NCBI GenBank assembly: GCA_964578345.1 | Contig: CAZOCP010000001.1 | Location: 2,028 to 66,027 of the forward strand | DNA from: Candidatus Woesearchaeota archaeon | GTDB taxonomy: Archaea; Nanobdellota; Nanobdellia; Pacearchaeales; GW2011-AR1 | Reading direction: 5' to 3' | DNA length: 64,000 nucleotides | Part shown: positions 6,307 to 61,184 of the stretch, piece by piece | How the letters are laid out: the number at the start of each line of letters is the position of its first letter | Numbering within the stretch: the first letter of the stretch is position 1 | Position numbers and translations under genes: made by a program | The notes under the pieces: model-generated | What the model was told of the DNA's origin: nothing | The model's input: only the letters and a program-made list of their open reading frames with translations | Database searches by the model: none

Positions 6307-6497
6307 GCATTCCTGAAACCTTTCAGGTATAAAAAATCTTCCCAGAAGGTCCTTCTTTTTTCTGTAATACTTACTCTCGCTTTCATCACGTCTTTTGCCA
6401 TAGGCGGAATAAGTTTTTCTTTTCGCACTATTTTTAGCAATTCGTAAAAGTCTCCAGGTCCAAATACTTCATAATGGACACCTAATATTTCATGCAT
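6303..6497 (-). CDS. small hypothetical protein overlapping the start of the methyltransferase gene
   Basis: 64-aa ORF, 4-nt overlap (coupled). Confidence 0.25.
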   Translation of the reverse strand: MHEILGVHYEVFGPGDFYELLKIVRKEKLIPPMAKDVMKARVSITEKRRTFWEDFLYLKGFRNA

Positions 6498-6563
6498 GCT
6501 TTATCTTTCTTTTTTTATTATTTAAATGTTTTTGCTCTGGTGTATCTGGACGGAGTGGTAAAA

Positions 6564-45192: not shown

Positions 45193-48100
45193 TCAAAACC
45201 ATTTGCCAAGAACCTCCTGTCTCTCTTTCTCCCTTCCAAATATACTCTGAATATATTTTTGAGTCAGCTCAAGACTCTCAAGCAAGTACGGACTAACTTT
45301 ATATTTTTTAGCCAAGTCAAGAGCTGGAAGCAAATATTTTAAAATACTTCCTTCTGAAACAGTAAAAATAAGCTTTCCTCCGCATCTTGTACATTTCCCC
45401 GTTAAAGGGGGTCTTCTAAATTTTTCATTGCAACCAACACATCTAAAAACTTGCTGTGAAAATTTTCTAAGATTTCCTCGTATATCTCTAATAAAATGCC
45501 TTTCAATTATCAATCTCGAAACATCCCTTACATCTACTGCCCTCAACTTACCGCATAAGTTCATCATAGAATCAACTTTGTCCTGCATGGCGGGCAAAGT
45601 CTTGTAAACTGAACATAATGGCCCAGCATTAATATTTGAAGTATCATAAGAAAACCATAATTCTTCAAACTCTTTATTTGTTCCGAGTCTGCCTCTTACT
45701 TGCTCCATTTTAATTTCAAAAGGAGAAGAATGTCTTTCGGCAGCTTCATAAAGAGCCAAAGGAATTTTTTTTGAAACATCAACATCAAATATCATATCAT
45801 CAACCTCATTCGCTCGAATTCTCATATTTAAAACAAGTGGGGCGTCTTGAGTGCCTCCTCTATGCGAAGGCAAAAACTTGCGTGAAAAATTTAATAATAA
45901 ATCCATTAAAAGCATTACTGCTGCTTCATCTCCATCGCAATCTCTCCTCATTGCGGCATGAATATAAGGAGAAGCTAATAAAGCCTGTGTTTGTGAAAAC
46001 CCTATTAACCTGCCTGCTACCGCGGCAGAAGTATGTGGAGACATACAAGCAAACAAACAGCCTACCAAGTCTTCTCGTTTAGAAGCGTTAAAAAACCTAT
46101 TCAGATTATATAGTTTTTCTAACTCATCATCAATAAACCTGGCGACTGATAAAAAAACAGCGTCTGCTCTTTCATCTGGAGTAACAGGACAAGATGGTAA
46201 GATAATATCGTGAGGGTAAATCTCCAATATCTGATCGTCTCTCTCAAGCTCCTTTCCATAAATATCAGAAGTATAGCCCATGTTCTTCAGCTTTGAAATG
46301 CTCGTCCCAATCTCACAGGGTTTAAAATGAGTCAGGGGCATCTCAGTCATATCGTATCTGATTGTTCCATCTTTGTTTACATTAAGATTGTGTTTTGCTC
46401 TGAGTAACCCTTTAGATAAATGCTCGCAATTATGGTCTTTGTTGCTGGTTCCTCTAACTCCTTTAACAATAAAGCTTATTTCCTCTTCTCTAAGTCCAAT
46501 TTTCTTTCTAGCTGAAGTGTAGTATGAAAAGACATCAATGTGGTTATTGTGATATGATTTCGAAAATCCATGTTCTTTGCACGTTTCAAATGAAAAAGAA
46601 TCGCATGAAGAACAGTAGTATCTCAATATGCATTCTTGTCTGCACTTCTCGCAAAAAGGATAAACTGAATCAATTGAGCAGTTTCTGCAGAAATACAGGG
46701 GAAACTCTGCCTTAACTCCTCCTTCCTCTATAGCAGACAAAAGGCTTCTCATTCTTCCTCCTTCCTCTCCTACAGGAAAAAGAACATGCGGACTTCCTAC
46801 AAGCTTGCGCAATTTAGCTTTCTCTGGTCTGCCCATTCTCGCGCCTATAAATGTGCCTGATTTATCTTTTATTTTAACAGGACAAAGTTCATTAATAATA
46901 TCTAATACCGGCTTATTGGATATTCTAACAGAAATGGTATCTATGTTTTTTTCTAATAAAGAATAATCAAGAATACCTAAATTAAACAGTAGCGCTTTGG
47001 TATTTTTTTCAGAAAGAACAACATTCTCAATGCTCAGGCTATGCTCACACCCTATAATTTCAAGTGCCCTTTTTCCTTTAGAAAATCTCTCTTTATCTTG
47101 GCGCGTAAAGGGTAGCACAAGACTCTTTTCTCTAACTTCTCCATGTGCAATCCAGTCTAATAAAGCAAGAAAATCTTCATAAGAAATTTCCCTCCAATAG
47201 TAAATAAAAGAAGGGTGAAGAGGAACTTTATATTTTTCTGACATAATCAGAGCATCAGAAAAAACAGGAAACATTTCACTATTCCCTCCTGCAGCCATTA
47301 GCTCTTCCAGCCAATACTGCTCAATATAGCCTGCCTCCTCTAACGGATGATTCCTATTTAAAAAATCTCCATAAGGAACTAGCAAATCTCCCAAATAAAT
47401 AATCTCAATAATCTGTGGGTATATCTTCAAAGTCTCGTTATGGTCTTTAAGAATTCTAACGGCCCCGTCTAATAATTTAACTATCGGACCGTCTATGTTA
47501 TCACAGATTGCGATTGTACATCCTTTTGTAGGTTTCTCGATTTTCAACTGTGTCCCGACTGCAATAAACCCTTGGGTAACCGCCATTGTCGCAGGATGAA
47601 GCGCAAGAGTAGAGTATCCTGTATTTCGGCATCTGCCATACCTCAAACGAAAAGCTCCAGACCTAGAAGGGTGCGCAAAAACCGGCCTTCCGGCAACTAA
47701 ATCTTGAATGTATGTGGCTCCAGAACGCTGGCCTCCTGCCTCCCTCTCTTTAATTTTCTTTTGTAGTTTAACAAACTCTTCCAGCCAATCCCACCCGGAT
47801 AAATTAAATCCTTTTTGTTTTAATTTTATTATTCTCCCTAAAACCTTCGGCGCCTTCTGTGCAAGGCCTTCTCCAATAACTAAAGCAAATCCGCTCCTAA
47901 TAAAATTAGTCTCTATTCGCGGAAGATCTTTATAATTATAAACTTCTTTGTCCTCGCTAGGGTCTCCGGTTAATTGAACAGGCAAATTTTGCATAAGAAA
48001 CTCCAGTTCTTTTTCAGAAGGAAGATACTGTAAATTTGTAATGCGCTCGTGGTATTCATAGCACTCGTGAATTCCTCGTTTGATTTCGTCATCTGTGGGG

Positions 48101-48633
48101 TCGTAAAGAGCATATCCAAAAATTTCACGAAGGTAATCAATAATAACTAAAGAAAAAGCAGCCTCGGTCCCCCCTGCCGATCTAATTGGCCCCGAATAAT
48201 ATGGAGCAAAAAAATCTTCTCCTTTAGAAGTCTTCTTTAATTTAAGTTGTATAAATCCCTCAATAGGAGAAGAAACATACCCTAAAGTCAAATATCCTAT
48301 TGCAACTCTGATTCCCGCCTCAATTGCTTCTAAATGACTTTGGAATTTACAAAACTTTTCTTTTGCAATTTCCTCTGCAATCTTCAATGCAACAGCAGGG
48401 TCAAGAGAGCCGTATTGTTTCTCTAATTCAAAAATTCTTCGGATAATTCCTTGGTCAATAATCTGAGGGTATAAAACTGAAACTAATCCGACGACTCTTT
48501 CTGCCAAAGAATTAGCTAGGGGAACTTCAACATCGCTCACAGGGTCGTATCCCTTCTTTTTTGCCTCCTTTGCTATAGTATAACATATTTGAACATTGTC
48601 TTCAATAGAAGAAAAATGATGATTAATATGCAC
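45193..48633 (-). CDS. polC: DNA polymerase II (PolD) large catalytic subunit DP2
   Basis: 1146 aa; multiple Cys clusters (CRNCSIDSVYPFCEKC, CSSCDS) and the conserved DP2 length and organisation; no intein. Confidence 0.9.
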   Translation of the reverse strand: MHINHHFSSIEDNVQICYTIAKEAKKKGYDPVSDVEVPLANSLAERVVGLVSVLYPQIIDQGIIRRIFELEKQYGSLDPAVALKIAEEIAKEKFCKFQSHLEAIEAGIRVAIGYLTLGYVSSPIEGFIQLKLKKTSKGEDFFAPYYSGPIRSAGGTEAAFSLVIIDYLREIFGYALYDPTDDEIKRGIHECYEYHERITNLQYLPSEKELEFLMQNLPVQLTGDPSEDKEVYNYKDLPRIETNFIRSGFALVIGEGLAQKAPKVLGRIIKLKQKGFNLSGWDWLEEFVKLQKKIKEREAGGQRSGATYIQDLVAGRPVFAHPSRSGAFRLRYGRCRNTGYSTLALHPATMAVTQGFIAVGTQLKIEKPTKGCTIAICDNIDGPIVKLLDGAVRILKDHNETLKIYPQIIEIIYLGDLLVPYGDFLNRNHPLEEAGYIEQYWLEELMAAGGNSEMFPVFSDALIMSEKYKVPLHPSFIYYWREISYEDFLALLDWIAHGEVREKSLVLPFTRQDKERFSKGKRALEIIGCEHSLSIENVVLSEKNTKALLFNLGILDYSLLEKNIDTISVRISNKPVLDIINELCPVKIKDKSGTFIGARMGRPEKAKLRKLVGSPHVLFPVGEEGGRMRSLLSAIEEGGVKAEFPLYFCRNCSIDSVYPFCEKCRQECILRYYCSSCDSFSFETCKEHGFSKSYHNNHIDVFSYYTSARKKIGLREEEISFIVKGVRGTSNKDHNCEHLSKGLLRAKHNLNVNKDGTIRYDMTEMPLTHFKPCEIGTSISKLKNMGYTSDIYGKELERDDQILEIYPHDIILPSCPVTPDERADAVFLSVARFIDDELEKLYNLNRFFNASKREDLVGCLFACMSPHTSAAVAGRLIGFSQTQALLASPYIHAAMRRDCDGDEAAVMLLMDLLLNFSRKFLPSHRGGTQDAPLVLNMRIRANEVDDMIFDVDVSKKIPLALYEAAERHSSPFEIKMEQVRGRLGTNKEFEELWFSYDTSNINAGPLCSVYKTLPAMQDKVDSMMNLCGKLRAVDVRDVSRLIIERHFIRDIRGNLRKFSQQVFRCVGCNEKFRRPPLTGKCTRCGGKLIFTVSEGSILKYLLPALDLAKKYKVSPYLLESLELTQKYIQSIFGREKERQEVLGKWF

Positions 48634-50197
48634 GATTGATTTCCTCCTCTACGCCGAAATCATAAACTTTCAGTTCTCTTGTTTTTAGGTTTAACACTGG
48701 AACTTTTGCAGGTTCTGGAATATTTCCAACTTTCTCTTCAAATTCTGTCTGGGCCTGCCAACAGCTTCCAGTTATAATAAGAGTCCCGTTGTAATTCTCA
48801 ATATCTAGTCTATGCACTTCTCCTGTACATAAAACATCTGGAACTTCTTCTATAACCAATGGATCTTTTTCTGCATTTGGGATATAGATAACTGAAGAAT
48901 GTGTTGGTGCAAGGTGCCTTCTCTTTAACATATGTCTAACTGCTTTGGCGGGCGATCTGTGCGCTTTCATTTCCCTTAATTCAGGAATCTCATTAATAAA
49001 AGAATGTATGCTTGCTCCATGGTACATTAAAACTTTAAATTCTTTGTCCTGCTCATAGAGCTTCACAAGCGAGGGATTAGTCACAAGCACTAAATTTTCT
49101 ATTTCGTATAAAGGAGAGCCGTAATATCTATCGATTAATGGCTGTGGTTCGGCAACTCTTGTTGCGTCATGCTGCCCAGGACACATAAAAATAATTATGT
49201 TTTTAGGTATTCTTTTCATATAAGAAGCCAAAAGAGAATATTGCTCTTTCATGCTTTTCAAAGCTAAAACCTGCTCTTGCCCGGGAAAAATTCCAACTCC
49301 ATCGACATTGTCTCCGGAAAAAAACAAATATTTAATTTTCTTAGCTGATTCTTCATCACTGTTAATCCACTCTAAAAAACGTTCGAAGCTTTTGTATAAA
49401 TGTCTGTCGCTCCCACAATGAACGTCGGATAAAAAAGCAATTGATATGTCTTGCTCGAATTTTGATTTCTCAAGAAGAAAAGCATCTGGGAAATAAATAT
49501 CATGAATAAAAATAATATCTCGGTTTCCTGACGCTTTAACAGCAACTACATCATCTAGCTGCAGTTCTCGGGCTTTGTTAAAAACCTCTAGCCGCTCTAA
49601 TTTTACCAAGCCGCTGATTTTTCCTGTCAAATCTTCCAAAGAAATAATTAAGTTCTTATTTTTTGTCTGCCTCTTTTCATTTACGATTCCAATAATGCTT
49701 AATTGTTGCCTCTCACTAGAAATTTTATTTATTGAACACAGATTCGTCAAATCTTGCCTTTGCATTAAAATACGTTGTAGTTGTTGATAGCGCGAACGAA
49801 AGTGATTTATAAAGTCAGAAACCTCGATTTTCTTAGAGGGAAGCGTAGATGAATAAAATAGTCTATAAGAAGAAGTCTGGGGGTTTATATTTTCTATTCC
49901 CGCACTTGATAGATTTATTTTTTCTTTTCTAATTTCAAATTTAATTCCTAATTTAATAAAAACATTCTCTATAGATAATTTATCTTCGCCTGACAGTTGC
50001 CCTAAAATTTGCTGAACATATTCTATATTATTTGATAAAGTAGATTTGGTTATTAATTTCTGCCCGGAAAATCTAACAAGATTTTCCAAAAAAACTTGCG
50101 CAATTTTTTTATCTTGTATGCTCTCTAAAATATCAAAAATCTCTTTTTCTAATAATAGCCCGCTCTCCCGAATTGTGTTTAAAATATCAGAATTCAT
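48623..50197 (-). CDS. polB: DNA polymerase II (PolD) small subunit DP1 (calcineurin-like phosphoesterase/exonuclease)
   Basis: OB-fold region plus metallophosphoesterase motifs (FLSDVHCGSD, FFSGDNVDG, GQHD, GHxH). Confidence 0.9.
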   Translation of the reverse strand: MNSDILNTIRESGLLLEKEIFDILESIQDKKIAQVFLENLVRFSGQKLITKSTLSNNIEYVQQILGQLSGEDKLSIENVFIKLGIKFEIRKEKINLSSAGIENINPQTSSYRLFYSSTLPSKKIEVSDFINHFRSRYQQLQRILMQRQDLTNLCSINKISSERQQLSIIGIVNEKRQTKNKNLIISLEDLTGKISGLVKLERLEVFNKARELQLDDVVAVKASGNRDIIFIHDIYFPDAFLLEKSKFEQDISIAFLSDVHCGSDRHLYKSFERFLEWINSDEESAKKIKYLFFSGDNVDGVGIFPGQEQVLALKSMKEQYSLLASYMKRIPKNIIIFMCPGQHDATRVAEPQPLIDRYYGSPLYEIENLVLVTNPSLVKLYEQDKEFKVLMYHGASIHSFINEIPELREMKAHRSPAKAVRHMLKRRHLAPTHSSVIYIPNAEKDPLVIEEVPDVLCTGEVHRLDIENYNGTLIITGSCWQAQTEFEEKVGNIPEPAKVPVLNLKTRELKVYDFGVEEEINRAY

Positions 50198-51399
50198 TGG
50201 AATAAAGCACGATCTAAAATATCCCGCGCCTTTGGTTTAATGTTTTGGCCTAACATCAGTTTTATCTCGCGCATTCTCCCCCTACGTCCTTTGCTGATTA
50301 CTTGCGCAGTTATAATCCCAAGCATATCAAACTCCGCGAGAATATCTGAAATTCTTCTTTGTGTTAGTATTTCATTTTTCGTCTTCTCGCATAATAATTG
50401 ATAAGCACCATAAACTTCGCCTGTGTAAATGGGGCTAGACTTATTTGTATCGTCTAATTGCATAATTGCAGCCAAAACCAATTGAAATTGTCTTGGCTCG
50501 CTCTCGATAATATCAAGCATTTTGTCTTTCTCTATTTTCTGATTTGCAGAATCTATATGGGATAATGTAATAGACTTGCTCTCTTCTCTTTCTGCCAGCT
50601 CTCCCGCAACTCTCAGCAAATCAAGCGCTCTTCTGGCGTCCCCGTGTTCTCTAGCTGCATAAGCCGCGCATTTTGCTAGAACTCCTTCGCCTAATACCCC
50701 TTGTTTAAATGCGTGCTGCGCTCTCTCTCTCAAAATATCCTGTAATTGCAGTGCATTATAGGGCGAGAAAACCATCTCCTCCTCTCCTAAAGAGCTCTTA
50801 ACTCTAGGATCCAAATTATCCTTAAATGTTAGGCTGTTGCTTATCCCAATAATGCTGATCTGGGCGTGTCTCAGCTCTGAATTCAGTCTGGTCAAAGTAT
50901 AAATAAAACTATCAGAAATCTTTTTGACTGCTTGGTCTATTTCATCTAATACTATAATAATAATTTGTTTTTTATAATCTATTAATTCAATAAATCTTCG
51001 ATAAACTTCATCCGTAGGAAGTCCGGTTGCCGGGACTGTCCCCCCTAAAGTATTTATCAACTCTGCAAGAATCCTGTATTCTGTGTCTGCAATTTTTTTA
51101 AGTTTGCAGTTTATATAAACAAATTGCAGGTTCTCCTCTCCAAGTTCTTTTATTTTATCCATTAGCTTCAAACCAACGTGTTGGACGCATAGCGTCTTTC
51201 CGCTTCCTGTCTTGCCATAAACAAAAAGATTGCTGATTCTCTCTCCTCGCAGCGCGGGCGCCAATATGGAAGCCACCGAAGCAATTTGTTCGTCTCTGTG
51301 CGGAACAAAATCAGGCGTATAGTTCGATTGTAAACAGCTCTTATTTTTAAATAAACTCTGAGATACAAATGCATTAAAAATACCCTCAACTCTGTCCAT
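50194..51399 (-). CDS. cdc6: Orc1/Cdc6 replication initiator
   Basis: AAA+ Walker A VYGKTGSGKT, Walker B, sensor motifs and a C-terminal winged helix. Confidence 0.9.
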   Translation of the reverse strand: MDRVEGIFNAFVSQSLFKNKSCLQSNYTPDFVPHRDEQIASVASILAPALRGERISNLFVYGKTGSGKTLCVQHVGLKLMDKIKELGEENLQFVYINCKLKKIADTEYRILAELINTLGGTVPATGLPTDEVYRRFIELIDYKKQIIIIVLDEIDQAVKKISDSFIYTLTRLNSELRHAQISIIGISNSLTFKDNLDPRVKSSLGEEEMVFSPYNALQLQDILRERAQHAFKQGVLGEGVLAKCAAYAAREHGDARRALDLLRVAGELAEREESKSITLSHIDSANQKIEKDKMLDIIESEPRQFQLVLAAIMQLDDTNKSSPIYTGEVYGAYQLLCEKTKNEILTQRRISDILAEFDMLGIITAQVISKGRRGRMREIKLMLGQNIKPKARDILDRALFQ

Positions 51400-51439
51400 A
51401 TATCACCTCTAAATTCTAGATGTAATAAGAGATTATAAA

Positions 51440-52060
51440 CTTATAGGTATTATTTTTCATATTTCCTGTGGAAAAAAGAATTTAAAGAGAATAAACCCTC
51501 CTTGAAGAAAAAAACAAACAATATCTCACACCTTGCTTTCCTATGGAGAACATAAACAAATGAAACATTCCCAAATTAATAAATGATTTGTATATAACCA
51601 TAAATTTGTATATAACCATAAAATACAGTTTATATTAACTTTATACTAAATACAATTTATATTAACTTTATACTATATAATAATACTCTAGAGTATTATT
51701 AATTACCAATCAGAACATTATATATAACCATAAATACACTTTTTATTACATAGTCCTATTAATCCGAATATTATACATAACTATAAAAAATACTTTCTAA
51801 TATATTATATTTAATTATATACTATTATATAATATCTTTTTCTATATAGTATATTTAATTATATACTATTATAAAACATACTTTCCAATATAATACATTT
51901 ACTTATATACTATTACATAATATATTTTTCTATATATTATATTTATATATGGAAAAATTTAAAAAGGAAGAAAAAATCCACGAGGAACAAACTCACTATA
52001 TAAATCCCCTCCATGAGAAACAATAGGGTCTCCAGGAAACAACCTTAAACCAAGAAACAA
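51440..52060. promoter_or_regulatory. putative replication origin (oriC) with ORB-like dyads, AT-rich direct repeats and a palindrome
   Basis: ORB-like TTTCC-N3-GGAAAA (51462-51475), TTTCC-TAT-GGAGAA (51536-51550), TCCA-CGA-GGAAC (51976-51992), TCCATGAGAAAC (52006-52022), TCCAGGAAAC (52029-52044). Direct repeats TATATAACCATAAAT x3 and TTTATATTAACTTTATACT x2. A 22-nt perfect palindrome lies at 51679-51700; the element is adjacent to cdc6. Confidence 0.6.
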
Positions 52061-52204
52061 CTCCAACCCAAGAAACAACACCCCATATTTCATATTATCA
52101 CCAATCCACACAATCTCCCCACCCCCTTCCCACAACCTATTATCCCCTTTATCCAGTACAAAAAATAGAGAAAAGTTTATATATATCTCACAATTACAAA
52201 CCAC

Positions 52205-52465
52205 ATGCCATTGGACAAACGCCCACTTAAAGACATAATAGGAAAACTAGTAGTGACCAAAGAAGGAAGACGTCTCGGTATTGTGAAAGACATAACTTTC
52301 GAAACAAGAACAGGCGAACTCATACAAATAATTCTTAAAGACACTACCCCATATACCAAAAATCTCAATCTAGAAACATCCCCCCAAAAAGAAACACTTA
52401 TTCCATACAACACCATTATCGCAATAGGAGACTTTGTAGTTATTTCAGAAGAAGATTTAATATAG
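52205..52465 (+). CDS. PRC-barrel domain protein
   Basis: GKLVVTKEGRRLGIVKDITFETRTGELIQIIL...IGDFVVISEEDL pattern typical of the PRC barrel. Confidence 0.5.
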   Translation: MPLDKRPLKDIIGKLVVTKEGRRLGIVKDITFETRTGELIQIILKDTTPYTKNLNLETSPQKETLIPYNTIIAIGDFVVISEEDLI

Positions 52466-52497
52466 ACCACCAATTTTAAATATACAAAATCACAACA

Positions 52498-52932
52498 ATG
52501 ATCCAACTAGTCAGTTTTAATTTTTCCAAGATTTCGGCCGAAAGACACCTCAATTTCACTCTTCAAAACATAAACACAAATATAGAATTCATCTCAATAG
52601 ATAAAGACAAGCTAGATTTAATTAAAGACAACGAAATTTTAAATATAAAGTTTAAGTTAACCATCTCTTATACAAAAAAAGAAGATAAAAAAACAGAAGA
52701 GGAAAAACAAGGAGAAGTGTTTTTTGAAGGGAATCTCATAGTATCAACAGATAAAGAAGAAGCAAAAAACATTCTCAAACAATGGAAGAAAAAAGAGATA
52801 AACCCACAAATAAAACTTCCTCTTTTCAACACAATTCTAGAAAGATGCGCCGCCAAAGCTCTGAAATTAGAAGAAGAGGTCAACCTACCTTTCCACATTC
52901 CCATTCCAAAAATACAGCCCAAACAACAATAA
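52498..52932 (+). CDS. hypothetical protein
   Basis: 144-aa ORF, K/E-rich. Confidence 0.3.
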   Translation: MIQLVSFNFSKISAERHLNFTLQNINTNIEFISIDKDKLDLIKDNEILNIKFKLTISYTKKEDKKTEEEKQGEVFFEGNLIVSTDKEEAKNILKQWKKKEINPQIKLPLFNTILERCAAKALKLEEEVNLPFHIPIPKIQPKQQ

Positions 52933-53652
52933 TTACTTTAAATCTCCAACCTTCCCAAAATCAAGCACTTCTAAATTTTCTCCCATAATTTTGACTCGAA
53001 AGTTCATTAAGTTAAATTTCCATGCCAAATTGCTTTGATTATTTACTACATCTATTCCTTCTCCAATTCCAGAAAAACTAGGTAAAATTATTATTTTTTT
53101 ATCTCTATATTTTCCCTCAAGAAAACATTTATATTTTTCAACTTTAACACCATCTCTCAAACTAACAGCCGGATGTAAATGTCCCATTATCCAGAATTTA
53201 ATTTTCTTTTTATAAATCTCAGAAAAATCTTTGTCGCCATGCAAAAAACAATACTTCTCTAATAATAAATATTCTCTAATAATATATTTTCTCTTATTTA
53301 CGATTTCTAATAGATAATTATCATGATTTCCCTTAATTATCTCAATTTTTTTACATTTTTTATCTAAATAATCAAATAAATTAACCAAACCATATCTCTC
53401 TTCTAATGTTAAACCTGAAAACTCATGCTTCAAATCTCCCAAAATAACTACCTTCTCAACTTTCTCAATCCTTTCAAATATTTCTTCAAAATCAGAAATC
53501 ATCTCATCATACATTCTTTTCGATATATCGACTCCTCCAATCTTTCCAAATGCACCAATATGTATATCACCTATCACCAAAATTTTATCTCTCTTTCCGG
53601 CTTCTTCATTTTCAATTAACAAGCATTTTCCTATATATTTTACTTTCTCCAT
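52933..53652 (-). CDS. calcineurin-like metallophosphoesterase (MPE partner of Lhr)
   Basis: Motifs GDIHIG, GDLKHE, GNHDNY, GHLH; immediately downstream of the Lhr-like helicase. Confidence 0.7.
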   Translation of the reverse strand: MEKVKYIGKCLLIENEEAGKRDKILVIGDIHIGAFGKIGGVDISKRMYDEMISDFEEIFERIEKVEKVVILGDLKHEFSGLTLEERYGLVNLFDYLDKKCKKIEIIKGNHDNYLLEIVNKRKYIIREYLLLEKYCFLHGDKDFSEIYKKKIKFWIMGHLHPAVSLRDGVKVEKYKCFLEGKYRDKKIIILPSFSGIGEGIDVVNNQSNLAWKFNLMNFRVKIMGENLEVLDFGKVGDLK

Positions 53653-53717
53653 AAAATTTCCATAGAAAGATACTAATTAAGGTTTTCTACAATATCAAAT
53701 AAGCGAAGGCCCGATTA

Positions 53718-56324
53718 TTAAATCTTCTGTTTGCTCGTAATCACCTTCAAATGTAATTCATGCATTCTTTTCAAAAAAGAAGAGCGGTCTTCTATTTTTA
53801 TCAAGTCAGACCTGCCCTGAATAAAGATATTTAACCCAAAAGGAGAGACCAACGGAACATTAATTTTTTTTATTTTTATTTTTCCAGATTCTATCGACTC
53901 TAAAATTTTTTTAGCTCTGGGAAGATCCATTAAATCCTCTAATACTTCTCTGCGCGCCTCACGCAAAATTGGGAACTCCATACTGATTTTCCGGACAGCG
54001 CTTAGTAAAAAACCAGAATGCACCTGTTGTTTTCCAACACTTTTTTCTCTACCCTTATATGTACGCAAAATCATCAAGCTGCGAGCAGCACAATGCCTAA
54101 ATCTTCTTTGAAGAACTTCTGTTTTTTCCACAGCTTCTTTTAAGATTTCCTCAAACTTTTTCGCTTCCACAGATTTAATAATTTTATTTTCATCCAATTC
54201 TTCTCCAGCTATATAAAATCCATTATCATGTATCCCCATTTCTACATCTCTAGACCTCAGCCGCGCAGCAGCATACGCATATACACGAGCCAAAGCATCA
54301 TTCACTCTTCTGCCATACATACTATGAAATAGCAGGTATTCTTTTTCTTCTTTAAATTTTTCAATCAATAAATTTTTATCATCAGGAATATCTGAAAAGT
54401 CCGCCTGCTCCTTAAAATACAGGTATATTTCTTCTGCAACATTCTCTTTACAATATAAATAAGAGCATATAAAATACACACACTCCTTTTTATTTTCTAA
54501 CCTTTCTTTTACCAATCTCCTAAACACTCCAATGTCAAGAGCAACATCAAAATGTAAAGGCAGCATTTCCGAGAACCACGAGGGAATAGTAGGATTTTTA
54601 GTTACTCCGGCACGCACAAACGCCTTCATCCCTCGCGCATATAAAAATTGGTATTTCTGCCCTCCGAGTACAAAAATATCTCCTCTTTTCATGCGCTCCA
54701 GAAAAGATTCATCAATCTTTCCAACACTCAAACCAGTATCTCCTCCAGCGCCTATCACCACAGAAATGAATCCTTCTTCAGGGATAGTTCCTAAATTTGT
54801 CAAATAAATAACTCTAGCTAATTTTCCTCTTTTTCCAATTTTACTCTCTTTCTCATCATACCAAATCTTCGCATACACACTCCTATGCTCAAGATCGTAC
54901 TCTCCAGCTAAATAACTAACCACATCAAAAAAATCTTCTTTACTCAAAGAGGCATAACAATAGCTTCTTCTGATAGTGCTGAGCATTTCATCAACATCCC
55001 ACACTCTACTAATAGCCATACCATAAATTTGCTGAGCCAGAACATCTAAACAATTATGAGGAATTTCAGCTCTATCAATTTTTCTCTCCGTCATATGTTT
55101 CATCAACACCCCGCATTCTACTAATTCCTCTCTCTCTAATACAATAAATTTTCCTTTAGGAGATTCATGTAGCTTATGCCCTGCTCTGCCGATACGTTGC
55201 AAAGCTCGCGCCACCCCCTTAGGAGAACGTAAAAGTATAACCAAATCAATACTTCCAATATCAATCCCTAATTCTAAGCTTGTGCTGCTCACTACCACTT
55301 TCAATTCACCCTTTCTCAATCTATCTTCAATTTCAAACCGCTTTTCTTTACTCATGCTGCTGTGATGTGCGCCCATAATCCCTTCATATTTTCCAGGAAA
55401 ATGAATTCCCAAATAATGTATTATCCTCTCTGTCGCAGCACGGGTATTAGTAAAAATCAGCGTAGTCCGATGCTGCACAATTAAATCATCCAGCATTCTA
55501 TATAATTCCTTCTGATTTTCAGAACTTTCTGCTTCTAAAATATTCTTGCCAGGAAACTTTAATTCAATATCAATATTTTTTTCCAATTTTACTTCAGCAA
55601 TTAAGCAGCTCCTCCCCTCACCTACTAAAAACCTCGCAATCTCTTCAAGAGGCGCAATAGTCGCGCTCAATCCAATACGTACAGGCTCAATCAAACTAAA
55701 AACACACAACCTTTCCAAACTCAAAGACAAATACACTCCTCTTTTATTAGTTAAAGCATGGATTTCATCTACTATAATATATTCCAAGGCTCTGAGTTTC
55801 TCAACAAATTTTTCTGTTGTAAGAATAATCGCCAAACTTTCAGGTGTAGTGACAAACAAATGAGGCGTCTTTTTTAATTGTCTTGCTCTTTCCTTAGCTT
55901 CACTATCCCCGGTTCTCAAACCAACTCGAATTTCCTGCAGGCTAATGCCATTTTTTTCAGCAAGGGCCTTAATTTCATTAAGCGGAGTAATAAGATTATA
56001 ATGCACATCGTTACTAAGCGATTTTAACGGGCTAATGTAAACAGCATACATTTTCTCTTCTAATTCATTCTTTAAGGCTAACTCTACTAAATAATTAATT
56101 ATACTCAAGAACGCCGTGAGAGTCTTTGTTCCGCCAGTAGGAGCAGAGATAAGTATGTTTTTTCTGTCTCTTATAGCTTTCACTCCGCATAATTGTGTCA
56201 AGGAAAATTCTTTAAATTTACCAAAAAACCATTCACTAACTAAAGGATTAAGCGTTTCTCTTATCTCTTCCTCCCCGCTTGGTTTTTCAATATATTTTAT
56301 TTCATTCATATTAAGCTGATCCAC
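53718..56324 (-). CDS. lhr: Lhr-core-type SF2 DNA helicase
   Basis: Walker A APTGGTKT, DEIH box, motif VI QRIGRAGH, long C-terminal Lhr-type domain (868 aa). Confidence 0.75.
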   Translation of the reverse strand: MDQLNMNEIKYIEKPSGEEEIRETLNPLVSEWFFGKFKEFSLTQLCGVKAIRDRKNILISAPTGGTKTLTAFLSIINYLVELALKNELEEKMYAVYISPLKSLSNDVHYNLITPLNEIKALAEKNGISLQEIRVGLRTGDSEAKERARQLKKTPHLFVTTPESLAIILTTEKFVEKLRALEYIIVDEIHALTNKRGVYLSLSLERLCVFSLIEPVRIGLSATIAPLEEIARFLVGEGRSCLIAEVKLEKNIDIELKFPGKNILEAESSENQKELYRMLDDLIVQHRTTLIFTNTRAATERIIHYLGIHFPGKYEGIMGAHHSSMSKEKRFEIEDRLRKGELKVVVSSTSLELGIDIGSIDLVILLRSPKGVARALQRIGRAGHKLHESPKGKFIVLEREELVECGVLMKHMTERKIDRAEIPHNCLDVLAQQIYGMAISRVWDVDEMLSTIRRSYCYASLSKEDFFDVVSYLAGEYDLEHRSVYAKIWYDEKESKIGKRGKLARVIYLTNLGTIPEEGFISVVIGAGGDTGLSVGKIDESFLERMKRGDIFVLGGQKYQFLYARGMKAFVRAGVTKNPTIPSWFSEMLPLHFDVALDIGVFRRLVKERLENKKECVYFICSYLYCKENVAEEIYLYFKEQADFSDIPDDKNLLIEKFKEEKEYLLFHSMYGRRVNDALARVYAYAAARLRSRDVEMGIHDNGFYIAGEELDENKIIKSVEAKKFEEILKEAVEKTEVLQRRFRHCAARSLMILRTYKGREKSVGKQQVHSGFLLSAVRKISMEFPILREARREVLEDLMDLPRAKKILESIESGKIKIKKINVPLVSPFGLNIFIQGRSDLIKIEDRSSFLKRMHELHLKVITSKQKI

Positions 56325-56396
56325 GTAGACTAATAAAATTTAATAGAGATTATTTAAGTCTTGCGAAACTTATTTTCCAATCCTCAATGGCCCTCA

Positions 56397-56464
56397 AGGA
56401 CGAAAGTCCCTAATGAAACGAGTGCCTATCAAAACCTCACCTCATCAAGAATTGGAAATTCTTG
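56397..56464 (+). repeat. copy B of the repeated structured motif (GGAC-GAAA-GTCC hairpin, conserved box ATGAAACGAGTGCCTATCAAAACC, 8-bp hairpin CAAGAATT-GGA-AATTCTTG)
   Basis: The 22-24-nt box is near-identical to the reverse complement of 41604-41628, with flanking hairpins in the same relative order. Confidence 0.4.
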
Positions 56465-56575
56465 ACTGCCTTCAAGGACAATTTACTTTTACTCTATCTT
56501 CTTTCTAAACACACATAGAGAAATATATATTATATAAGATAATTCTTTATATACTCTCTATTTTTTCCTTACTAA

Positions 56576-57178
56576 ATGAGCAACTATATTAAAATAACTT
56601 CTAAAAATCTCACAGAAATCAAAAAAGCTTTAGATCTTAAAAAAGGAAAACTTCTGCTTTACGAACCAGATTTAGCGTATCGCCTTTCTTCAAGAAAAAC
56701 AGAAAGAGTCTTTATGGGGAGCGCTCACTTTCATTTATTTGGCAATGCGCGCATTATTTCCTCTCAGTTTATATCAGCTTCTTCATTTAACCATAAAGAG
56801 AGCAGAGAATATACTTTAAGGCAAAGAATACCCTCAGACGATTTATCATGGGAAGTAGCTTACTCTTTTTTCAATTCATTAAATCTTCCTAACAACTATG
56901 TCTTCCAAATTTATGGTCAGGTTATGATAGGATGCCCTCTTTTTTATGAAAGAGGTAGATCTCTCTATATACCCAATGGGAAAAGCTTAGAAAACGCCCT
57001 AGAGGATACTTTAACTGTTTTTGTCAATGAAGTTAACAAAGAAAATCAGACAGGTTTAGGAAAAAAGGAAATAAACTTAATTCTTGAATATGCAATAGAA
57101 GATTTAAAAACAGGCAAAATCCTGGAACACAATCTCAAAGCTGGCAAAGCAGCCGACGCAGTAACCGGGCTTGCTTAA
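56576..57178 (+). CDS. hypothetical protein
   Basis: 200-aa ORF. Confidence 0.3.
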   Translation: MSNYIKITSKNLTEIKKALDLKKGKLLLYEPDLAYRLSSRKTERVFMGSAHFHLFGNARIISSQFISASSFNHKESREYTLRQRIPSDDLSWEVAYSFFNSLNLPNNYVFQIYGQVMIGCPLFYERGRSLYIPNGKSLENALEDTLTVFVNEVNKENQTGLGKKEINLILEYAIEDLKTGKILEHNLKAGKAADAVTGLA

Positions 57179-57229
57179 ACACATACACAAGACCGAATAA
57201 CTTTAATACTCCCCAGCTCTAAAAATAAG

Positions 57230-57541
57230 ATGCCAATCATTTCCCAGCAGAAAAAAGACAAAATATCAGAGCAGATTCTTCACTTCCTGTTCTCTGCAGG
57301 CCCCTCTGCCAAATTCACTTCAGAAATAGCCCGCGAGCTTGCACGAGATGAAGAATTCATAAAAGACCTTTTATCAGATCTAAAAGAAAAGAAGATCGTC
57401 ATAGATATAAGCAAGAACCCCAAAGGGATAAAATACACTCGCCGTCTAAGGTGGAGGCTCACAAACGAAGCATTTGTGGCATATAAAAAACACCAATTCA
57501 AACCGAACAATATTTATAATCTAGAATTGATTAAAGAATAA
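57230..57541 (+). CDS. small winged-helix-like DNA-binding protein
   Basis: 103 aa; helical segment SAKFTSEIARELARDEEFIKDLLSDLKEKKIV. Confidence 0.3.
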   Translation: MPIISQQKKDKISEQILHFLFSAGPSAKFTSEIARELARDEEFIKDLLSDLKEKKIVIDISKNPKGIKYTRRLRWRLTNEAFVAYKKHQFKPNNIYNLELIKE

Positions 57542-57544
57542 AAC

Positions 57545-58213
57545 ATGGATCCTATAAAAGAAGCCTTCATAAAAGTAAAAGAAGAGATAGAATACTTAAA
57601 AAAAGAGCTATCTTCATTAAAACATGTGCTTACAGAACTAACAACCCAAACAATTCCAACAGACAATTCCAACAAACCAACACAAGATACAAACCAACAA
57701 ACCAACACACAGGAAATTCCAACACAAAAGTTAAACGAACACCATTTATTCTATCATAAGCCTCTAAAAACACCAAATTCAAGTATCTCCACAGGAAATA
57801 AAGGGGTTCCAACAAACCAACCAACAAACCAACCAACAAACCAACACACAGGAAATGAAGGGGTCCTCTCAGAATTAGACCAATTAGAAACAGTTTCTAA
57901 GCTTTTGACAACTCTAGACGCAGTTAAAAAAGAAGTTCGTATAAAATTTAAAAGATTAACAGACCAAGAAATGAGTGTTTTTACTATGATATACACACTT
58001 GAAGAAAGGGGATTTATCGTCGATTATCATATCCTATCCATCCAATTAAATCTCACACAGATATCCATCAGAGATTACATAAGAAAACTAATCCAAAAAG
58101 GAATTCCTATTCGAAAATCTAAAGAAAACAACAAAAAAATAACCCTTACCATCGCTCCCGAGCTAAGAAAAATCACTTCTTTAGAAACCATAATTGCCCT
58201 TCGGGAGCTATAA
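57545..58213 (+). CDS. coiled-coil protein with a PTNQ tandem repeat and C-terminal winged-helix domain
   Basis: N-terminal coiled coil, low-complexity (PTNQ)n encoded by the CCAACAAACCAA tandem repeat, and C-terminal MSVFTMIYTLEERGFIVDYHILSIQLNLTQISIRDYIRKLIQKG wHTH. Confidence 0.4.
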   Translation: MDPIKEAFIKVKEEIEYLKKELSSLKHVLTELTTQTIPTDNSNKPTQDTNQQTNTQEIPTQKLNEHHLFYHKPLKTPNSSISTGNKGVPTNQPTNQPTNQHTGNEGVLSELDQLETVSKLLTTLDAVKKEVRIKFKRLTDQEMSVFTMIYTLEERGFIVDYHILSIQLNLTQISIRDYIRKLIQKGIPIRKSKENNKKITLTIAPELRKITSLETIIALREL

Positions 58214-58400
58214 ATATTCGTTATACCGAATAAATAATTAAAAAGTAGTTTATCCAAACAAATCTCTTCAAAAAACTTTAAAGTACGTTTAATGTTCATT
58301 CTCCTCAGAAAAATTGCTTTATTTCTTCAATTTTTCCTCATGTCGGAGACCGACGGAAACCACACTTTTTAAAAATTCTCTCTTTCCAGTTTTTTCATCA

Positions 58401-59048
58401 TTAACTCTCATTTTTCTGCTCCTGTTTTGTTTCTTCTTCATTTTTTCTTTTTTTATTAACTCTCACTTTCGCATATTTTACTAGTTTTTCCCTCGTTTCT
58501 TCAGGGACAAATACTCTTTTTTTCCCATTTTTCTCACTAAACTCACGAATTAAACTCTCACTTTTCTGTTTTATCGCATTTATTTGGCCCCTAATTGTAG
58601 ATCTCTCTTTTCCTAAAAGAAGAGCCAAATCTTCATAGCTCAGTTTTAATTCACTATTCATTAAAGTAAAAACAATCAATCTTTCATTGGCAGTTAAATT
58701 TTTTAAAATATCATAAAAATTACCTGTTTGAACAGCTGTTTGAACAGCATTTTCAACACCATAAACAGGTGTTTGTTTAGAATAAACAGACGAATTCTTC
58801 AACAGCTGTTTGTCTTCTTTAGCTAAATTCATCATTCCAACACCTTCTCTTACACTCTCAATCTCACTTTTTATCGACGATAAATCTCTCTGCATCTCTT
58901 CCAACAAATCAAACAACTGTTTGTCTTTATTATCAAGGTGTTTAATCCACTTTCCAACAGTACCCATGTCCTTCTTCACAGAAAAAAATCCTTTTTCAGT
59001 TTTTTCCTCTAATTTTTTATACTTATTTCCAAACAACCAATCAAACAT
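58401..59048 (-). CDS. coiled-coil protein with C-terminal HTH domain
   Basis: C-terminal LSYEDLALLLGKERSTIRGQINAIKQK helix-turn-helix; an internal AVQTAVQT is encoded by tandem AACAGCTGTTTG repeats. Confidence 0.4.
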   Translation of the reverse strand: MFDWLFGNKYKKLEEKTEKGFFSVKKDMGTVGKWIKHLDNKDKQLFDLLEEMQRDLSSIKSEIESVREGVGMMNLAKEDKQLLKNSSVYSKQTPVYGVENAVQTAVQTGNFYDILKNLTANERLIVFTLMNSELKLSYEDLALLLGKERSTIRGQINAIKQKSESLIREFSEKNGKKRVFVPEETREKLVKYAKVRVNKKRKNEEETKQEQKNES

Positions 59049-59440
59049 AATTTCATACCATATGCCTAACTATTTAAATATTGCGGTTTTAAGGGCTAAA
59101 AGACAAAGAACCAAAAACCCACACAATTTTTATTAATCTCTTCTTAAAACACAAAAAAGATAAACAAACACCTCGATTTCTATCTCAAACAGCTGTTTAA
59201 ACAGCGAAAAACACCCCCAACAGCTTAAATCACGCATTTAAATGAAACAATACTACATAAGGTTTAAATACTTCTTTATCCATCTTAAATTACACCTCTT
59301 TTTCCCAGGGAGGAAGTTTGATCTTTCTTTTTGTCAGATTGAACCTCCTCTCATGGGTTTCAAAGTCCCAAATATCTTGCTTTTTTAATATTTATAAATC
59401 ACCAACATAAATTTATAAACTTCATTTTTTTCTTCTCTTT

Positions 59441-59695
59441 ATGCAGATATTTAAACAAAAACGCTCTTTCAAAAATGAATTTAAACGGCAATTACGCCTC
59501 GCTATTATGGCAGCTATAGGCTTTACTATTGCATTTGCATGGCGCAATGCGATATTCAACACATTCCTAGACTATATTTCTCGTTTCCTAAATCTCCCGA
59601 TAGAACACTTCTTATCAGAGATATACGCTGCTCTTGCCATAACATTCACAGGAGTCATCCTTATCTTTCTTTCTTCCCGGTTGCTAAAAGAATAG
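59441..59695 (+). CDS. small membrane protein
   Basis: 84 aa with two hydrophobic helices. Confidence 0.35.
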   Translation: MQIFKQKRSFKNEFKRQLRLAIMAAIGFTIAFAWRNAIFNTFLDYISRFLNLPIEHFLSEIYAALAITFTGVILIFLSSRLLKE

Positions 59696-59782
59696 CACAA
59701 TACCCAAATAAAAACATATTTAAACTTGCTTTTTCTAGTTCTATCAACGGTTTATGTTCAATAGCCGTGAAAGGAGGTGTAT

Positions 59783-59950
59783 ATGGCGAAAACAACAGCG
59801 TGGTTAGTAACTTTAATAGGAGTTCTTTATCTATTGCCTCTTATAGGCGTCGACATTGGCGTAGATCTTTCCATGTGGCTTATTGCCCTGTCTTTCTTGG
59901 CCATCGGAGTTACTAAGCTTATGCGCAATTATAGCGGCAAGCGCAAATAA
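59783..59950 (+). CDS. small membrane protein (55 aa; not in the ORF track)
   Basis: An AAGGAGGTG SD lies 5 nt upstream; translation MAKTTAWLVTLIGVLYLLPLIGVDIGVDLSMWLIALSFLAIGVTKLMRNYSGKRK. Confidence 0.35.
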   Translation: MAKTTAWLVTLIGVLYLLPLIGVDIGVDLSMWLIALSFLAIGVTKLMRNYSGKRK

Positions 59951-60012
59951 GTAGATAAAGACAAGTTTTTCTTTTTTTATTAATTTTCTTTTTTCTTTAT
60001 CTTTTTTAACAA

Positions 60013-60044
60013 GCTCAATCTTTCTAGCTTAAACAAAAAATTTC
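60013..60044 (+). repeat. 32-nt direct repeat copy 1 (GCTCAATCTTTCTAGCTTAAACAAAAAATTTC)
   Basis: 30/32 identity with 60649-60680; each copy lies 60-80 nt downstream of a tiny membrane-protein gene. Confidence 0.45.
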
Positions 60045-60435
60045 AGCGTCACTCAAAGATTCGGTTTAATAGAAAGATTCATAAGACATTGTCACTTAAG
60101 ATTTATATGTCAAGAATATCGAGACCTCGAGTCAAATATGGAAAAATAAAAATTAGGTTGTCTAATAGAAATTTAAGGATAAAAGAAGTATAAAACTATT
60201 ACACGAATCTCGAAAGAATCCTTCCTCTATAACGCCTAGCCACGATCTCGAAACAATGCTAAAAGAATCAGCAACAAAGATATAAGTCCACGTTATTCTT
60301 TCCCACATAATATTTTCAAAAATAAATAGCCTCAGTTATGAGTGAGGCCGAAGGCCGAACGCGCGCCACACCACACCACACCACAATATCAGACTATATC
60401 AAAAAATATATAAAGTCTTAAAACTTTAATACATA

Positions 60436-60597
60436 AATGGTTTCTATAAGTCTAACAATATCAGGGATTCTGGCAATTATTATAGGGATACTTATCTTAA
60501 TATGGCCCAAAATACTTCGTATAGGTGTTGGTTTTTATCTTATCATCATAGGGATTCTTCAACTTTTTAACTCCTATGTGCAATTTTCTCCTAACTA
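60436..60597 (+). CDS. small membrane protein (53 aa; not in the ORF track)
   Basis: Translation MVSISLTISGILAIIIGILILIWPKILRIGVGFYLIIIGILQLFNSYVQFSPN (DUF308/HdeD-like GIL repeat pattern). Confidence 0.35.
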
Positions 60598-60648
60598 ATT
60601 AGTCAAAGCAAGCTTTTTACAACAATTATTCACAACAAAAATAACTCT

Positions 60649-60680
60649 GCTCAATCTTTCTAGCTTCAACAAAAATTTTC
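60649..60680 (+). repeat. 32-nt direct repeat copy 2
   Basis: See copy 1. Confidence 0.45.
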
Positions 60681-61184
60681 CGCACATCAAAAAGTTCTCT
60701 TTATCCAGGAGATTTTTTCTTTAATATTAAAACAATAGCCTTAGTCGTATAGGCGCCGAAGGCGCCGTCACAACAGCCCAAATCAATAAAAACAGCAGAT
60801 AAAAGAAGGAGAGAAGAATTAGACAACACAGAATTCATAAAATAAATAAATTTAAGTCCGCGTAATATTTCTCCTTTCGCTTAAAACTTTCAACACACTC
60901 TAATCTAAGACCGGCTATTTAGGACTTTTCAACCAAAAGGCATGGCAGAATTACGGTTAATGATGATTAGACGAAATCTCTCACTTGCCTGTCGGTTGCC
61001 CGTCGACAAAAAACATAAAATAGGCAATTCTTATAATCGATTTCTCATTCCGTTTAAACATTTTCAAAAACGGATACGCCATTCGGCGTATAATCTCGTT
61101 TAAACGCAATTGTCAAGAAGTAAATGATATCGGAAGTTGTTCTCCCACCCAATAGTGGCGCGCGCTGGAAAAAGAAAAATAAAT

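Follow-up and report, generated by a model that had tools for sequence, protein, structure and literature searches.

A putative oriC1-type replication origin with inverted origin recognition boxes beside the orc1/cdc6 gene of a Pacearchaeota-type DPANN archaeon

Does the long intergenic gap upstream of the orc1/cdc6 initiator gene in this stretch of archaeal DNA hold the origin from which the chromosome is replicated? We examined 64,000 nt of contig CAZOCP010000001.1 (hereafter the window, within which all positions are numbered). The window has about 34% G+C, and its host is an AT-rich DPANN archaeon of the Pacearchaeota type; the nearest relatives of its Orc1/Cdc6, at 68-76% identity, come from metagenome-assembled genomes labelled Pacearchaeota, Nanoarchaeota or Woesearchaeota. 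A sequence-only reading of the window had proposed an oriC beside a leftward cdc6-DP1-DP2 gene string, and the adjacent Orc1-1-type gene, the inverted origin recognition boxes (ORBs), an AT-rich stability minimum and a conserved layout all agree with that proposal. We conclude that positions 51400-52204 are very probably the chromosomal replication origin of this archaeon, built like the archaeal oriC1. The literature defines an archaeal origin as an AT-rich region flanked by ORBs beside an initiator gene (PMC4010727; PMC5333045), and the gap was assigned to the oriC1 type because it combines these same parts, as follows.

50194-51399, minus strand: orc1/cdc6 initiator gene, 401 aa, Orc1-1 type (Pfam Cdc6_lid and Cdc6_C; TIGR02928)
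51400-52204, no strand: intergenic gap, putative oriC, 805 nt, 24% G+C
51462-51472, minus strand: ORB3, a mini-ORB with core TCCACAGGAAA, an exact core match
51526-51549, minus strand: ORB2, a full ORB (TCTCCATAGGAAAGCAAGGTGTGA), 26.4 bits, exact core at 51537-51547
51561-51975, no strand: AT-rich block, likely duplex-unwinding region, about 415 nt, 85% A+T, enlarged by tandem repeats
51976-51991, plus strand: degenerate ORB-like site (ATCCACGAGGAACAAA)
52008-52031, plus strand: ORB1, a full ORB (CCTCCATGAGAAACAATAGGGTCT), 21.4 bits, exact core at 52010-52020
52031-52079, plus strand: three half-ORBs (TCCAGGAAACAAC and two copies of CCAAGAAACAAC) at 18-nt spacing, specific to this genome

The gap, which had been estimated earlier at about 550 nt of noncoding sequence, contains three exact copies of the ORB core TCCANNNGAAA (TCCA-N3-GAAA) within its 805 nt. 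ORB1 is inverted relative to ORB2 and ORB3, with the cores facing inward to the AT-rich region on both sides and the G-rich tails facing outward. Full ORBs were scored with a matrix built from 52 sites in related genomes only, with which the window was then scanned. Three matches reached at least 20 bits in the 64 kb: ORB2 (26.4, the best), a site at 57786-57809 (22.1) and ORB1 (21.4). The pattern TCCA-N3-GAAA was found 11 times in the window (expected, 4.06), a count never attained in 100 shuffles. This core fits the published ORB sequences of both Sulfolobus solfataricus, in which the experimentally defined mini-ORB, an Orc1 site, reads GATTTTCAGATGAAACG (PMC3089459), and Pyrococcus furiosus, in which the reverse complement of the ORBs contains TTCCAGTGGAAATGAAACTCTGGGGGG (PMC1904270). 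Apart from the strong intragenic match at 57788, no second ORB cluster was found in the window, and tblastn found no second orc1 gene there.

The sequence-only reading had listed five dyads of the form TTCC-N3-GGAA in the gap. Three of these, at 51462, 51536 and 52006, are real sites and coincide with the ORB cores; the other two (51976 and 52029) lack an exact core and count as degenerate or half sites, and the literal pattern fits only one of the five (51463). As a motif, TTCC-N3-GGAA was unenriched in the window (2 found versus 1.4 expected), and we replaced it with TCCA-N3-GAAA. ORB1 itself is embedded in an array of degenerate and half-ORBs, in which CCA-N0-3-GRAACAA occurs five times (51978-52079), compared to only twice elsewhere in the 64 kb. 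Two strings quoted earlier from this side of the gap were located at 52118 (CCCACCCCCTTCCCACAACC) and at 52051 and 52069 (CAAGAAACAAC).

The protein encoded next to these boxes is of the matching type. Orc1/Cdc6 passes the NCBIfam model TIGR02928 with 422 bits (cutoff, 181), and its best solved relative is S. solfataricus Cdc6-1 (Orc1-1; 2QBY_A, E = 1.7e-104), followed by Aeropyrum pernix ORC1 (2V1U, E = 1.1e-93). Matches to Cdc6-3 (4.8e-44) and ORC2 (1.8e-10) were far weaker. Mutants of Orc1-1 at G120/L121 (initiator-specific motif), R341 (helix-turn-helix) and R365 (wing) have lower ORB affinity and specificity (PMC3089459). The equivalents of these residues in the phmmer alignment (TGL, QRR and GRxG) are identical in the window protein.

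Between the inverted boxes lies the most easily melted DNA of the window. Positions 51761-51960 form its most AT-rich 200-nt segment (88.5% A+T), and positions 51769-51868 its least stable 100-mer, with a nearest-neighbour free energy of -90.1 (next-lowest region, -101.6). The 100-mers of the window had a mean of -123.7 (standard deviation, 7.2), which places the minimum at the gap 4.7 standard deviations off the mean.

We compared the gap with those of 20 species-level relatives, giving an alignment of 21 gaps. All 20 have the PRC-barrel gene next to cdc6 in divergent orientation, with 389-994 nt between the two. With cdc6 at the right, the order of elements in these gaps is the PRC promoter, a reversed ORB1, a TTTAAAnA box, a T-rich tract, TTTATAAATATTTATATTATATATTAT, ORB2 and ORB3, followed by GATAAGTTTATAAT (likely the cdc6 TATA/BRE), a ribosome-binding site and the ATG. 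The reversed ORB1 block, ACCC..TGGTTTC.TATGGA, is conserved across the 21 gaps, and the orthologous elements are TTCCAnnGGAAATnAnGGTGT for ORB2 and TTTcCAnnGGAAATAnAG for ORB3. The spacing between ORB2 and ORB3 (median, 79 nt in relatives; 75 nt in the window) and from ORB3 to the ATG (72-113 nt in relatives, with a median of 77 nt; 73 nt in the window) is also similar. The density of TCCANNNGAAA was 33-fold higher in the relatives' gaps than in 223 kb of flanking sequence. Absence of the dyads from orthologous gaps had been named in advance as grounds for giving up the origin; they proved to be the best-conserved features of those gaps.

A second set comprised 27 independent metagenome loci, more distant and taken from a scan made for another purpose. 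All 27 share the synteny, and in 21 of them (counted from the listed positions) a reversed core lies upstream of forward cores. Inverted ORBs also precede cdc6 in more distant Woesearchaeota-like loci. About 45 related loci keep the order dp2-dp1-cdc6, origin, prc; together with the overlapping or abutting of the three genes in the window, this bears out the leftward cdc6-DP1-DP2 string described earlier.

Conservation in the gaps extends beyond the ORBs. The TTTAAAnA box lies about 10-12 nt from ORB1 in the relatives; it is TATA-like, with no gene assigned to it. Beyond it come the T-rich tract and then the nearly invariant TTTATAAATATTTATATTATATATTAT, the corresponding part of the window being about 51917-52004. 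Because the box, the tract and TTTATAAATATTTATATTATATATTAT are all conserved, the likely unwinding region is conserved in sequence and not in composition alone.

The repeats within the gap behave differently from these elements. Every string quoted in the sequence-only reading was found where it had been placed, among them TATATAACCATAAA in three copies (51591, 51609 and 51721), TTTATATTAACTTTATACT in two (51629 and 51656) and ATATTTAATTATATACTATTAT in two (51807 and 51851). Tandem Repeats Finder resolved four arrays, listed here with the palindrome that lies among them.

51586-51622, no strand: 18-nt array, two copies, with a third copy at 51716-51734
51621-51679, no strand: 27-nt array, 2.2 copies
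51678-51701, no strand: perfect 24-nt palindrome, genome specific
51782-51945, no strand: 44-nt array, 3.7 copies (or 88 nt, 1.9 copies), inside the AT-rich block, genome specific
52032-52079, no strand: 18-nt array, 2.7 copies

The palindrome, found at 51679 and previously given as 22 nt, is 24 nt long. None of the window's tandem repeats was found in the 20 related gaps, and neither was the palindrome, the longest perfect palindromes in those gaps being 10-20 nt. Five relatives (L004, L008, L012, L013 and L014) carry different expansions at different positions. A blastn search of the gap against the rest of the window returned only matches of 13-24 nt and no comparable copy of the repeat block. 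Since the repeats are unconserved and single copy, and since the relatives have expanded differently elsewhere, we read them as tolerated products of slippage. The 18-, 27- and 44-nt repeats and the palindrome are thus most likely neutral, lineage-specific expansions of the unwinding region rather than defined origin elements. The earlier suggestion that AT-rich repeats form the duplex-unwinding element therefore stands for the block as a whole, which is the stability minimum of the window, and not for the particular repeats and palindrome, which are unconserved and whose role is unsupported.

It is quite unlikely, in our estimation, that the 18-, 27- and 44-nt repeats, the half-ORB array and the palindrome are instead functional iterons or sites for a second origin factor. 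Their regularity would suit such a role, as would a perfect palindrome of a length reached in only 0.2% of Markov simulations; half-ORBs at 18-nt spacing could add cooperative Orc1 binding, and the Sulfolobus motif ucm and its binding protein UBP show that non-ORB elements can be essential (PMC12141716). However, the repeats and palindrome were conserved in 0 of 20 related gaps, the five expanded relatives differ from the window in both the kind and position of their repeats, such a pattern is typical of slippage in AT-rich DNA, and the gap shows no enrichment of the exact Sulfolobus ucm.

We consider it extremely unlikely that the AT-rich repeat block is a noncoding RNA gene, a CRISPR-like array, a small protein gene or an inserted mobile element, although the gap is long, contains an 81-aa open reading frame (ORF; 51959-52204, minus strand) and has a palindrome flanked by direct repeats. 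An Rfam scan of the whole window gave two tRNAs only and no family in the gap. The 81-aa ORF, tried as a small protein gene, was rejected for want of a homologue in any related locus, and a mobile element or multicopy repeat was rejected on the blastn result above, the block being single copy in the window. The repeats are moreover contiguous, AT-rich and without spacers, unlike a CRISPR array. Neutral expansion of the unwinding region remains the reading that we prefer.

One further short motif was found among the ORBs of the closest relatives.

51758-51769, minus strand: copy of a clade-specific 12-mer (ATTCGGATTAAT on the minus strand; consensus GTTCGTnTTAAT)

This 12-mer is present in 13 copies in 10.7 kb of relatives' gaps and in 2 copies in 223 kb outside them, an enrichment of about 100-fold. 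In 14 of the 15 close relatives with a scorable site (among L001-L035) it lies between the AT-rich core and ORB2, 41-49 nt upstream of the ORB2 core, and L008 and L014 have 3-4 copies. As a general origin element GTTCGTnTTAAT was rejected: in the second set only 7 of 27 loci matched, none at the 41-49-nt spacing, and the motif is clade specific only. The closest parallel is the Sulfolobus ucm, ATTATACAAAC, an essential 11-bp motif in the unwinding region that is bound by the nucleoid-associated protein UBP, whose gene its authors inferred to be a recent acquisition within the Sulfolobales and Desulfurococcales (PMC12141716). Like the 12-mer, ucm is short, conserved, distinct from the ORBs and located between them, and its reverse complement, GTTTGTATAAT, loosely resembles the Pacearchaeota 12-mer GTTCGTATTAAT. 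This likeness needs one gap and one mismatch in AT-rich sequence and is insignificant alone, and the 12-mer and its fixed spacing hold in the closest clade only, unlike the essential ucm. In the gap itself ucm was unenriched, with one match at two or fewer mismatches (simulation mean, 1.9) and no exact copy. By analogy with ucm and UBP, the 12-mer near ORB2 might be a candidate site for a factor other than Orc1.

The sequence elements of the gap, their arrangement, their conservation and the type of initiator were thus observed in this analysis; for Orc1 binding, MCM loading, melting, autoregulation and origin firing we draw on Sulfolobus, Aeropyrum and Pyrococcus. Firing of Sulfolobus oriC1 depends on both ORB2 and ORB3, which lie in inverted orientation on either side of the unwinding region (PMC12141716). 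In the window, Orc1/Cdc6 of the Orc1-1 type, supplied by the neighbouring gene, would bind the three ORBs as monomers. ATP-bound Orc1 on the flanking boxes would distort the DNA and recruit the MCM helicase to the AT-rich region between them, and this region, the easiest-melting DNA of the 64 kb, would open and give rise to bidirectional replication. Orc1 probably also regulates its own cdc6-DP1-DP2 operon through ORB3, a role that we propose because ORB3 lies about 17 nt (edge to edge) upstream of the cdc6 TATA box and 73 nt from the cdc6 ATG.

51432-51444, minus strand: likely TATA/BRE box of the cdc6 promoter (ATAAGTTTATAAT on the minus strand; promoter role inferred)

The block aGATAAGTTTATAAt, which covers this TATA/BRE region, is conserved across the 21-gap alignment, and a ribosome-binding site, GAGGTGAT, stands directly ahead of the cdc6 ATG.

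Several observations weigh against the gap being an active origin of this kind. ORB3 is weak: it has no G-rich tail and scores less than 10 bits with the full-ORB matrix. The geometry of the origin is atypical here, because the distance between ORB1 and ORB2 is 463 nt and the single 12-mer is displaced, lying 222 nt from ORB2. An inter-ORB distance of 463 nt is the largest seen (157-169 nt in most close relatives, up to 443 nt), and the excess length comes from the 18-, 27- and 44-nt arrays and the palindrome. GC skew gives no help. The plus strand has negative skew on both sides of the gap (-0.09 to -0.25 at 45-51 kb and -0.35 to -0.44 at 52-56 kb), and the cumulative GC skew peaks at about 33 kb and bottoms at about 62 kb rather than at the gap, 64 kb being short for such a test. 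Orientation-corrected skew, in which per-gene skew was regressed on gene orientation and a break point, placed the best break at 51-52 kb, only marginally better than a break at 33 kb (weighted residual, 212.6 versus 219.8). At this break the plus strand becomes more C-rich rightward, opposite to the usual G-rich leading strand, and no skew flip was seen in the pooled relatives. The skew switch that the sequence-only reading had placed at the gap is thus not borne out, as the strand is C-rich on both sides with no sign change within the 64 kb. Finally, Thermococcus kodakarensis is reported to need neither the cdc6-adjacent origin nor Cdc6 for replication (PMC5663688); a canonical origin sequence is therefore no guarantee of use.

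Much of this would also suit a gap that is only a divergent promoter and operator, in which Orc1 on the ORBs regulates cdc6-DP1-DP2 and the PRC-barrel gene while the origin is dormant or vestigial or replication is origin independent. The closeness of ORB3 to the conserved cdc6 TATA box, the conserved TATA-like boxes of both flanking genes (cdc6 and PRC-barrel), the lack of a skew inflection and the T. kodakarensis case all favour this explanation, which we nevertheless judge unlikely. A pure operator would not need inverted ORBs around a conserved, extremely AT-rich melting minimum; the only orc1 gene and the only ORB cluster found in the window sit here; and origins with demonstrated firing in Sulfolobus and Pyrococcus have the same architecture. 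An oriC1-type origin that may also serve as an operator for cdc6 is the interpretation that we carry forward.

The skew itself has local features that we note separately. The plus strand is strongly C-rich at about 52-60 kb (52200-60000) whatever the gene orientation and returns to normal after about 61 kb. In the 52- to 60-kb region, the coding-strand GC skew at third codon positions is about -0.2 to -0.4 for plus-strand genes and +0.45 to +0.72 for minus-strand genes; with few genes in this region, gene-specific composition and a strand effect are not separable. In the relatives, too, the PRC side tends to be C-rich. Near the cumulative-skew minimum, we considered a 1.2-kb stretch (about 59.9-61.2 kb) as an origin candidate and rejected it, since it holds small membrane-protein ORFs and no ORBs. 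Within it, positions 59950-61180 contain only such small ORFs, with no Rfam match. An element of about 32 nt, GCTCAATCTTTCTAGCTT[A/C]AACAAAAA..TTTC, occurs there twice (60013-60044 and 60649-60680), and there are two G+C-rich hairpin-like sequences (about 60340-60366 and 60741-60768).

The one strong ORB match outside the gap is inside a gene on the PRC side, 5.8 kb from ORB1.

57788-57807, plus strand: satellite full ORB (TCCACAGGAAATAAAGGGGT), 22.1 bits, inside a 222-aa gene at 57545-58213
57845-57864, plus strand: second satellite copy (17/20), in the same 222-aa gene

In the 222-aa protein, a low-complexity linker joins an N-terminal region to a C-terminal winged-helix-like DNA-binding region. 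The protein has no significant Pfam domain match of its own; the winged-helix reading draws on its sequence and on helix-turn-helix Pfam hits precomputed for several homologues. More than 200 homologues were found, all in Nanoarchaeota-type genomes, and an alignment of 30 of them showed an invariant S..N.GV inside the otherwise variable linker. At the nucleotide level, we examined the DNA of 80 metagenome loci; homologous sites are present in L006, L011, L019 and L041-L120, often as two copies within the gene. Of 67 sites, 60 encode the Ser with TCC, a codon that accounts for 14.5% of Ser residues in the rest of these genes. The second Gly is encoded by GGG in 66 of the 67 (19.7% in the rest of the genes) and the first by GGA in 61. 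The residue changes that are tolerated (T/I, G/R and any residue at x) are precisely those that spare TCCA-N3-GAAA-N3-GGGGT. The satellite ORB, which is kept at synonymous codon positions in more than 60 homologues, thus appears to be maintained by selection at the DNA level, with the peptide S(T/I)GNxGV appearing to be simply the translation of TCCAYAGGAAATNNNGGGGTT. The downstream TDRQTDRQ and PTNQPTNQ likewise appear to be an in-frame short C/A-rich nucleotide repeat, which in relatives is an (ACAG)n microsatellite.

The position of the intragenic ORB is conserved as well. Each of the 27 loci with sufficient flanking sequence has the 222-aa gene on the PRC side, where the order is prc, the 144-aa gene unk144, an optional metallophosphoesterase and lhr, and then the 103-, 222- and 215-aa genes. 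Wherever the strict ORB pattern matches (26 of 27 loci), the intragenic ORB points the same way as ORB1, at a distance of about 1.1-6.2 kb. The metallophosphoesterase-Lhr pair (52933-56324 in the window) is present in some lineages and absent in others (compare L058, L061 and L086, among others), and where it is present the intragenic ORB is about 5.6-6.2 kb away from ORB1 instead of about 1.1-1.6 kb. Tentatively, Pacearchaeota origins could extend, by way of this ORB, beyond the core of two ORBs and the unwinding region between them; we hold this as a possibility rather than the expected outcome. If Orc1 binds there, the intragenic ORB could be a satellite site that loads or titrates the initiator or, alternatively, a switch that couples expression of the 222-aa DNA-binding protein to the replication cycle. 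It is a clear case of DNA-level constraint producing a "conserved protein motif," and, as a candidate initiator-binding site outside the origin, it alone among the features described here adds to the textbook account. The nearest precedent is in Pyrococcus, in which a cluster of ORBs inside the dp1 gene is bound by Cdc6 in vivo (PMC1904270). There the intragenic ORBs are in dp1, whereas here a winged-helix protein gene on the opposite side of the origin carries them, and the matrix scan gave no ORB match in dp1 of the window.

The remaining genes around the origin are as follows.

45193-48633, minus strand: DP2 gene, large subunit of PolD (Pfam PolC_DP2 N-terminal, central and catalytic domains, E about 1e-109), last in the cdc6-DP1-DP2 string
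48623-50197, minus strand: DP1 gene, small subunit of PolD (Pfam DNA_pol_E_B and Metallophos)
52205-52465, plus strand: PRC-barrel gene, 86 aa (Pfam PRC, 1.1e-10), transcribed away from the origin
52498-52932, plus strand: gene of a 144-aa protein (unk144) with no assigned function, the second right-hand neighbour, conserved across all loci
52933-53652, minus strand: metallophosphoesterase gene
53718-56324, minus strand: Lhr-type helicase gene

DP1 shares 4 nt with cdc6 and 11 nt with DP2, and DP2 lies downstream of DP1 in the related loci too, several of which have gaps between dp1 and dp2. In three loci (L021, at 4717-5001 and 6001-6999; L022; and L023), an insert of about 0.8-1 kb interrupts the N-terminal (AAA+) part of cdc6; in L021 and L022 it lies between two tblastn segments that cover query residues 1-93/111 and 65/66-399. 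This insert could be an intein. On the other side of the origin, the PRC-barrel gene is the kept right-hand neighbour, divergent from cdc6 in every Pacearchaeota locus examined. Its product matches PDB entries 8qzo and 8onw, both PRC-barrel proteins, and PRC-barrel proteins take part in the FtsZ-based cell division of archaea (bioRxiv 10.1101/2023.03.28.534520). Sequence searches of Pfam, NCBIfam and PDB gave no match for the 144-aa protein and nothing informative on function for the 103-, 222- and 215-aa proteins. As for the assembly, the region is identical over 6564 nt, repeats included, in a Logan assembly contig of run SRR8863434, a separately stored public assembly that may or may not share reads with the window. 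On long related contigs, the locus ranges and match positions put the gap near 481 kb in JAIFVX010000001.1 (575 kb; within 473.8-487.0 kb), near 473 kb in Ga0209042_1000002 (603 kb) and near 185 kb in Ga0080064_1000007 (867 kb).

The locus provides a sequence-defined candidate origin for a DPANN lineage known only from metagenomes, and in the literature library searched, none of the 12 papers listed for ORBs, oriC and Orc1 refers to DPANN, nor did we find a paper there that joins Pacearchaeota with GC skew and the origin of replication. Its elements can be used to set genome start coordinates, to check assemblies and in coverage-based estimates of growth rate. If the gap is indeed the origin, the Orc1-1/oriC1 pair of replicator and initiator, with an ORB sequence that is essentially of the Sulfolobus/Aeropyrum type, reaches into very small reduced genomes. 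Related species differ in the distance between ORBs (about 157 to 463 nt), a variation that is relevant to the placement of MCM between the boxes.

Among known systems, Pyrococcus and Thermococcus have the same succession of oriC, cdc6/orc1 and then the DP1 gene (PMC1904270), so that the compact replication module that had been singled out as noteworthy was already described for these genera. Their oriC also has inverted long ORBs and shorter mini-ORBs, as here, but in the 34-bp Pyrococcus ORB the spacer between core and G-rich tail is longer than in the window ORBs. We take the full Pyrococcus string to run oriC-cdc6-DP1-DP2, and we presume that the Aeropyrum ORB is close to TCCACAGGAAA..GGGGT. 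ORC1 of A. pernix, the second-best solved homologue of the window initiator (PDB 2V1U), recognises a 22-bp ORB (PMC1904270).

The closest likeness is to oriC1 of Sulfolobus and Saccharolobus. It shares with the window a position directly upstream of an orc1-1-type gene, three ORBs with the core T(T/C)CA-N3-GAAA and a G-rich tail, and an inverted pair of ORBs flanking an AT-rich unwinding region; its Orc1-1 is the closest solved homologue of the window protein, in which the DNA-contact residues are kept. The two differ in that the segment from ORB3 through the unwinding region to ORB2 measures about 130 bp in all in S. islandicus, whereas here the inter-ORB distance is 463 nt, and in that Sulfolobus oriC1 has ucm, whereas the gap in the window is without an exact copy. 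Sulfolobus oriC1 has been studied experimentally, whereas the host here is a DPANN archaeon and the putative origin is read from its sequence. The oriC1-type class of origin is already known, and this locus adds to it a case from the DPANN archaea.

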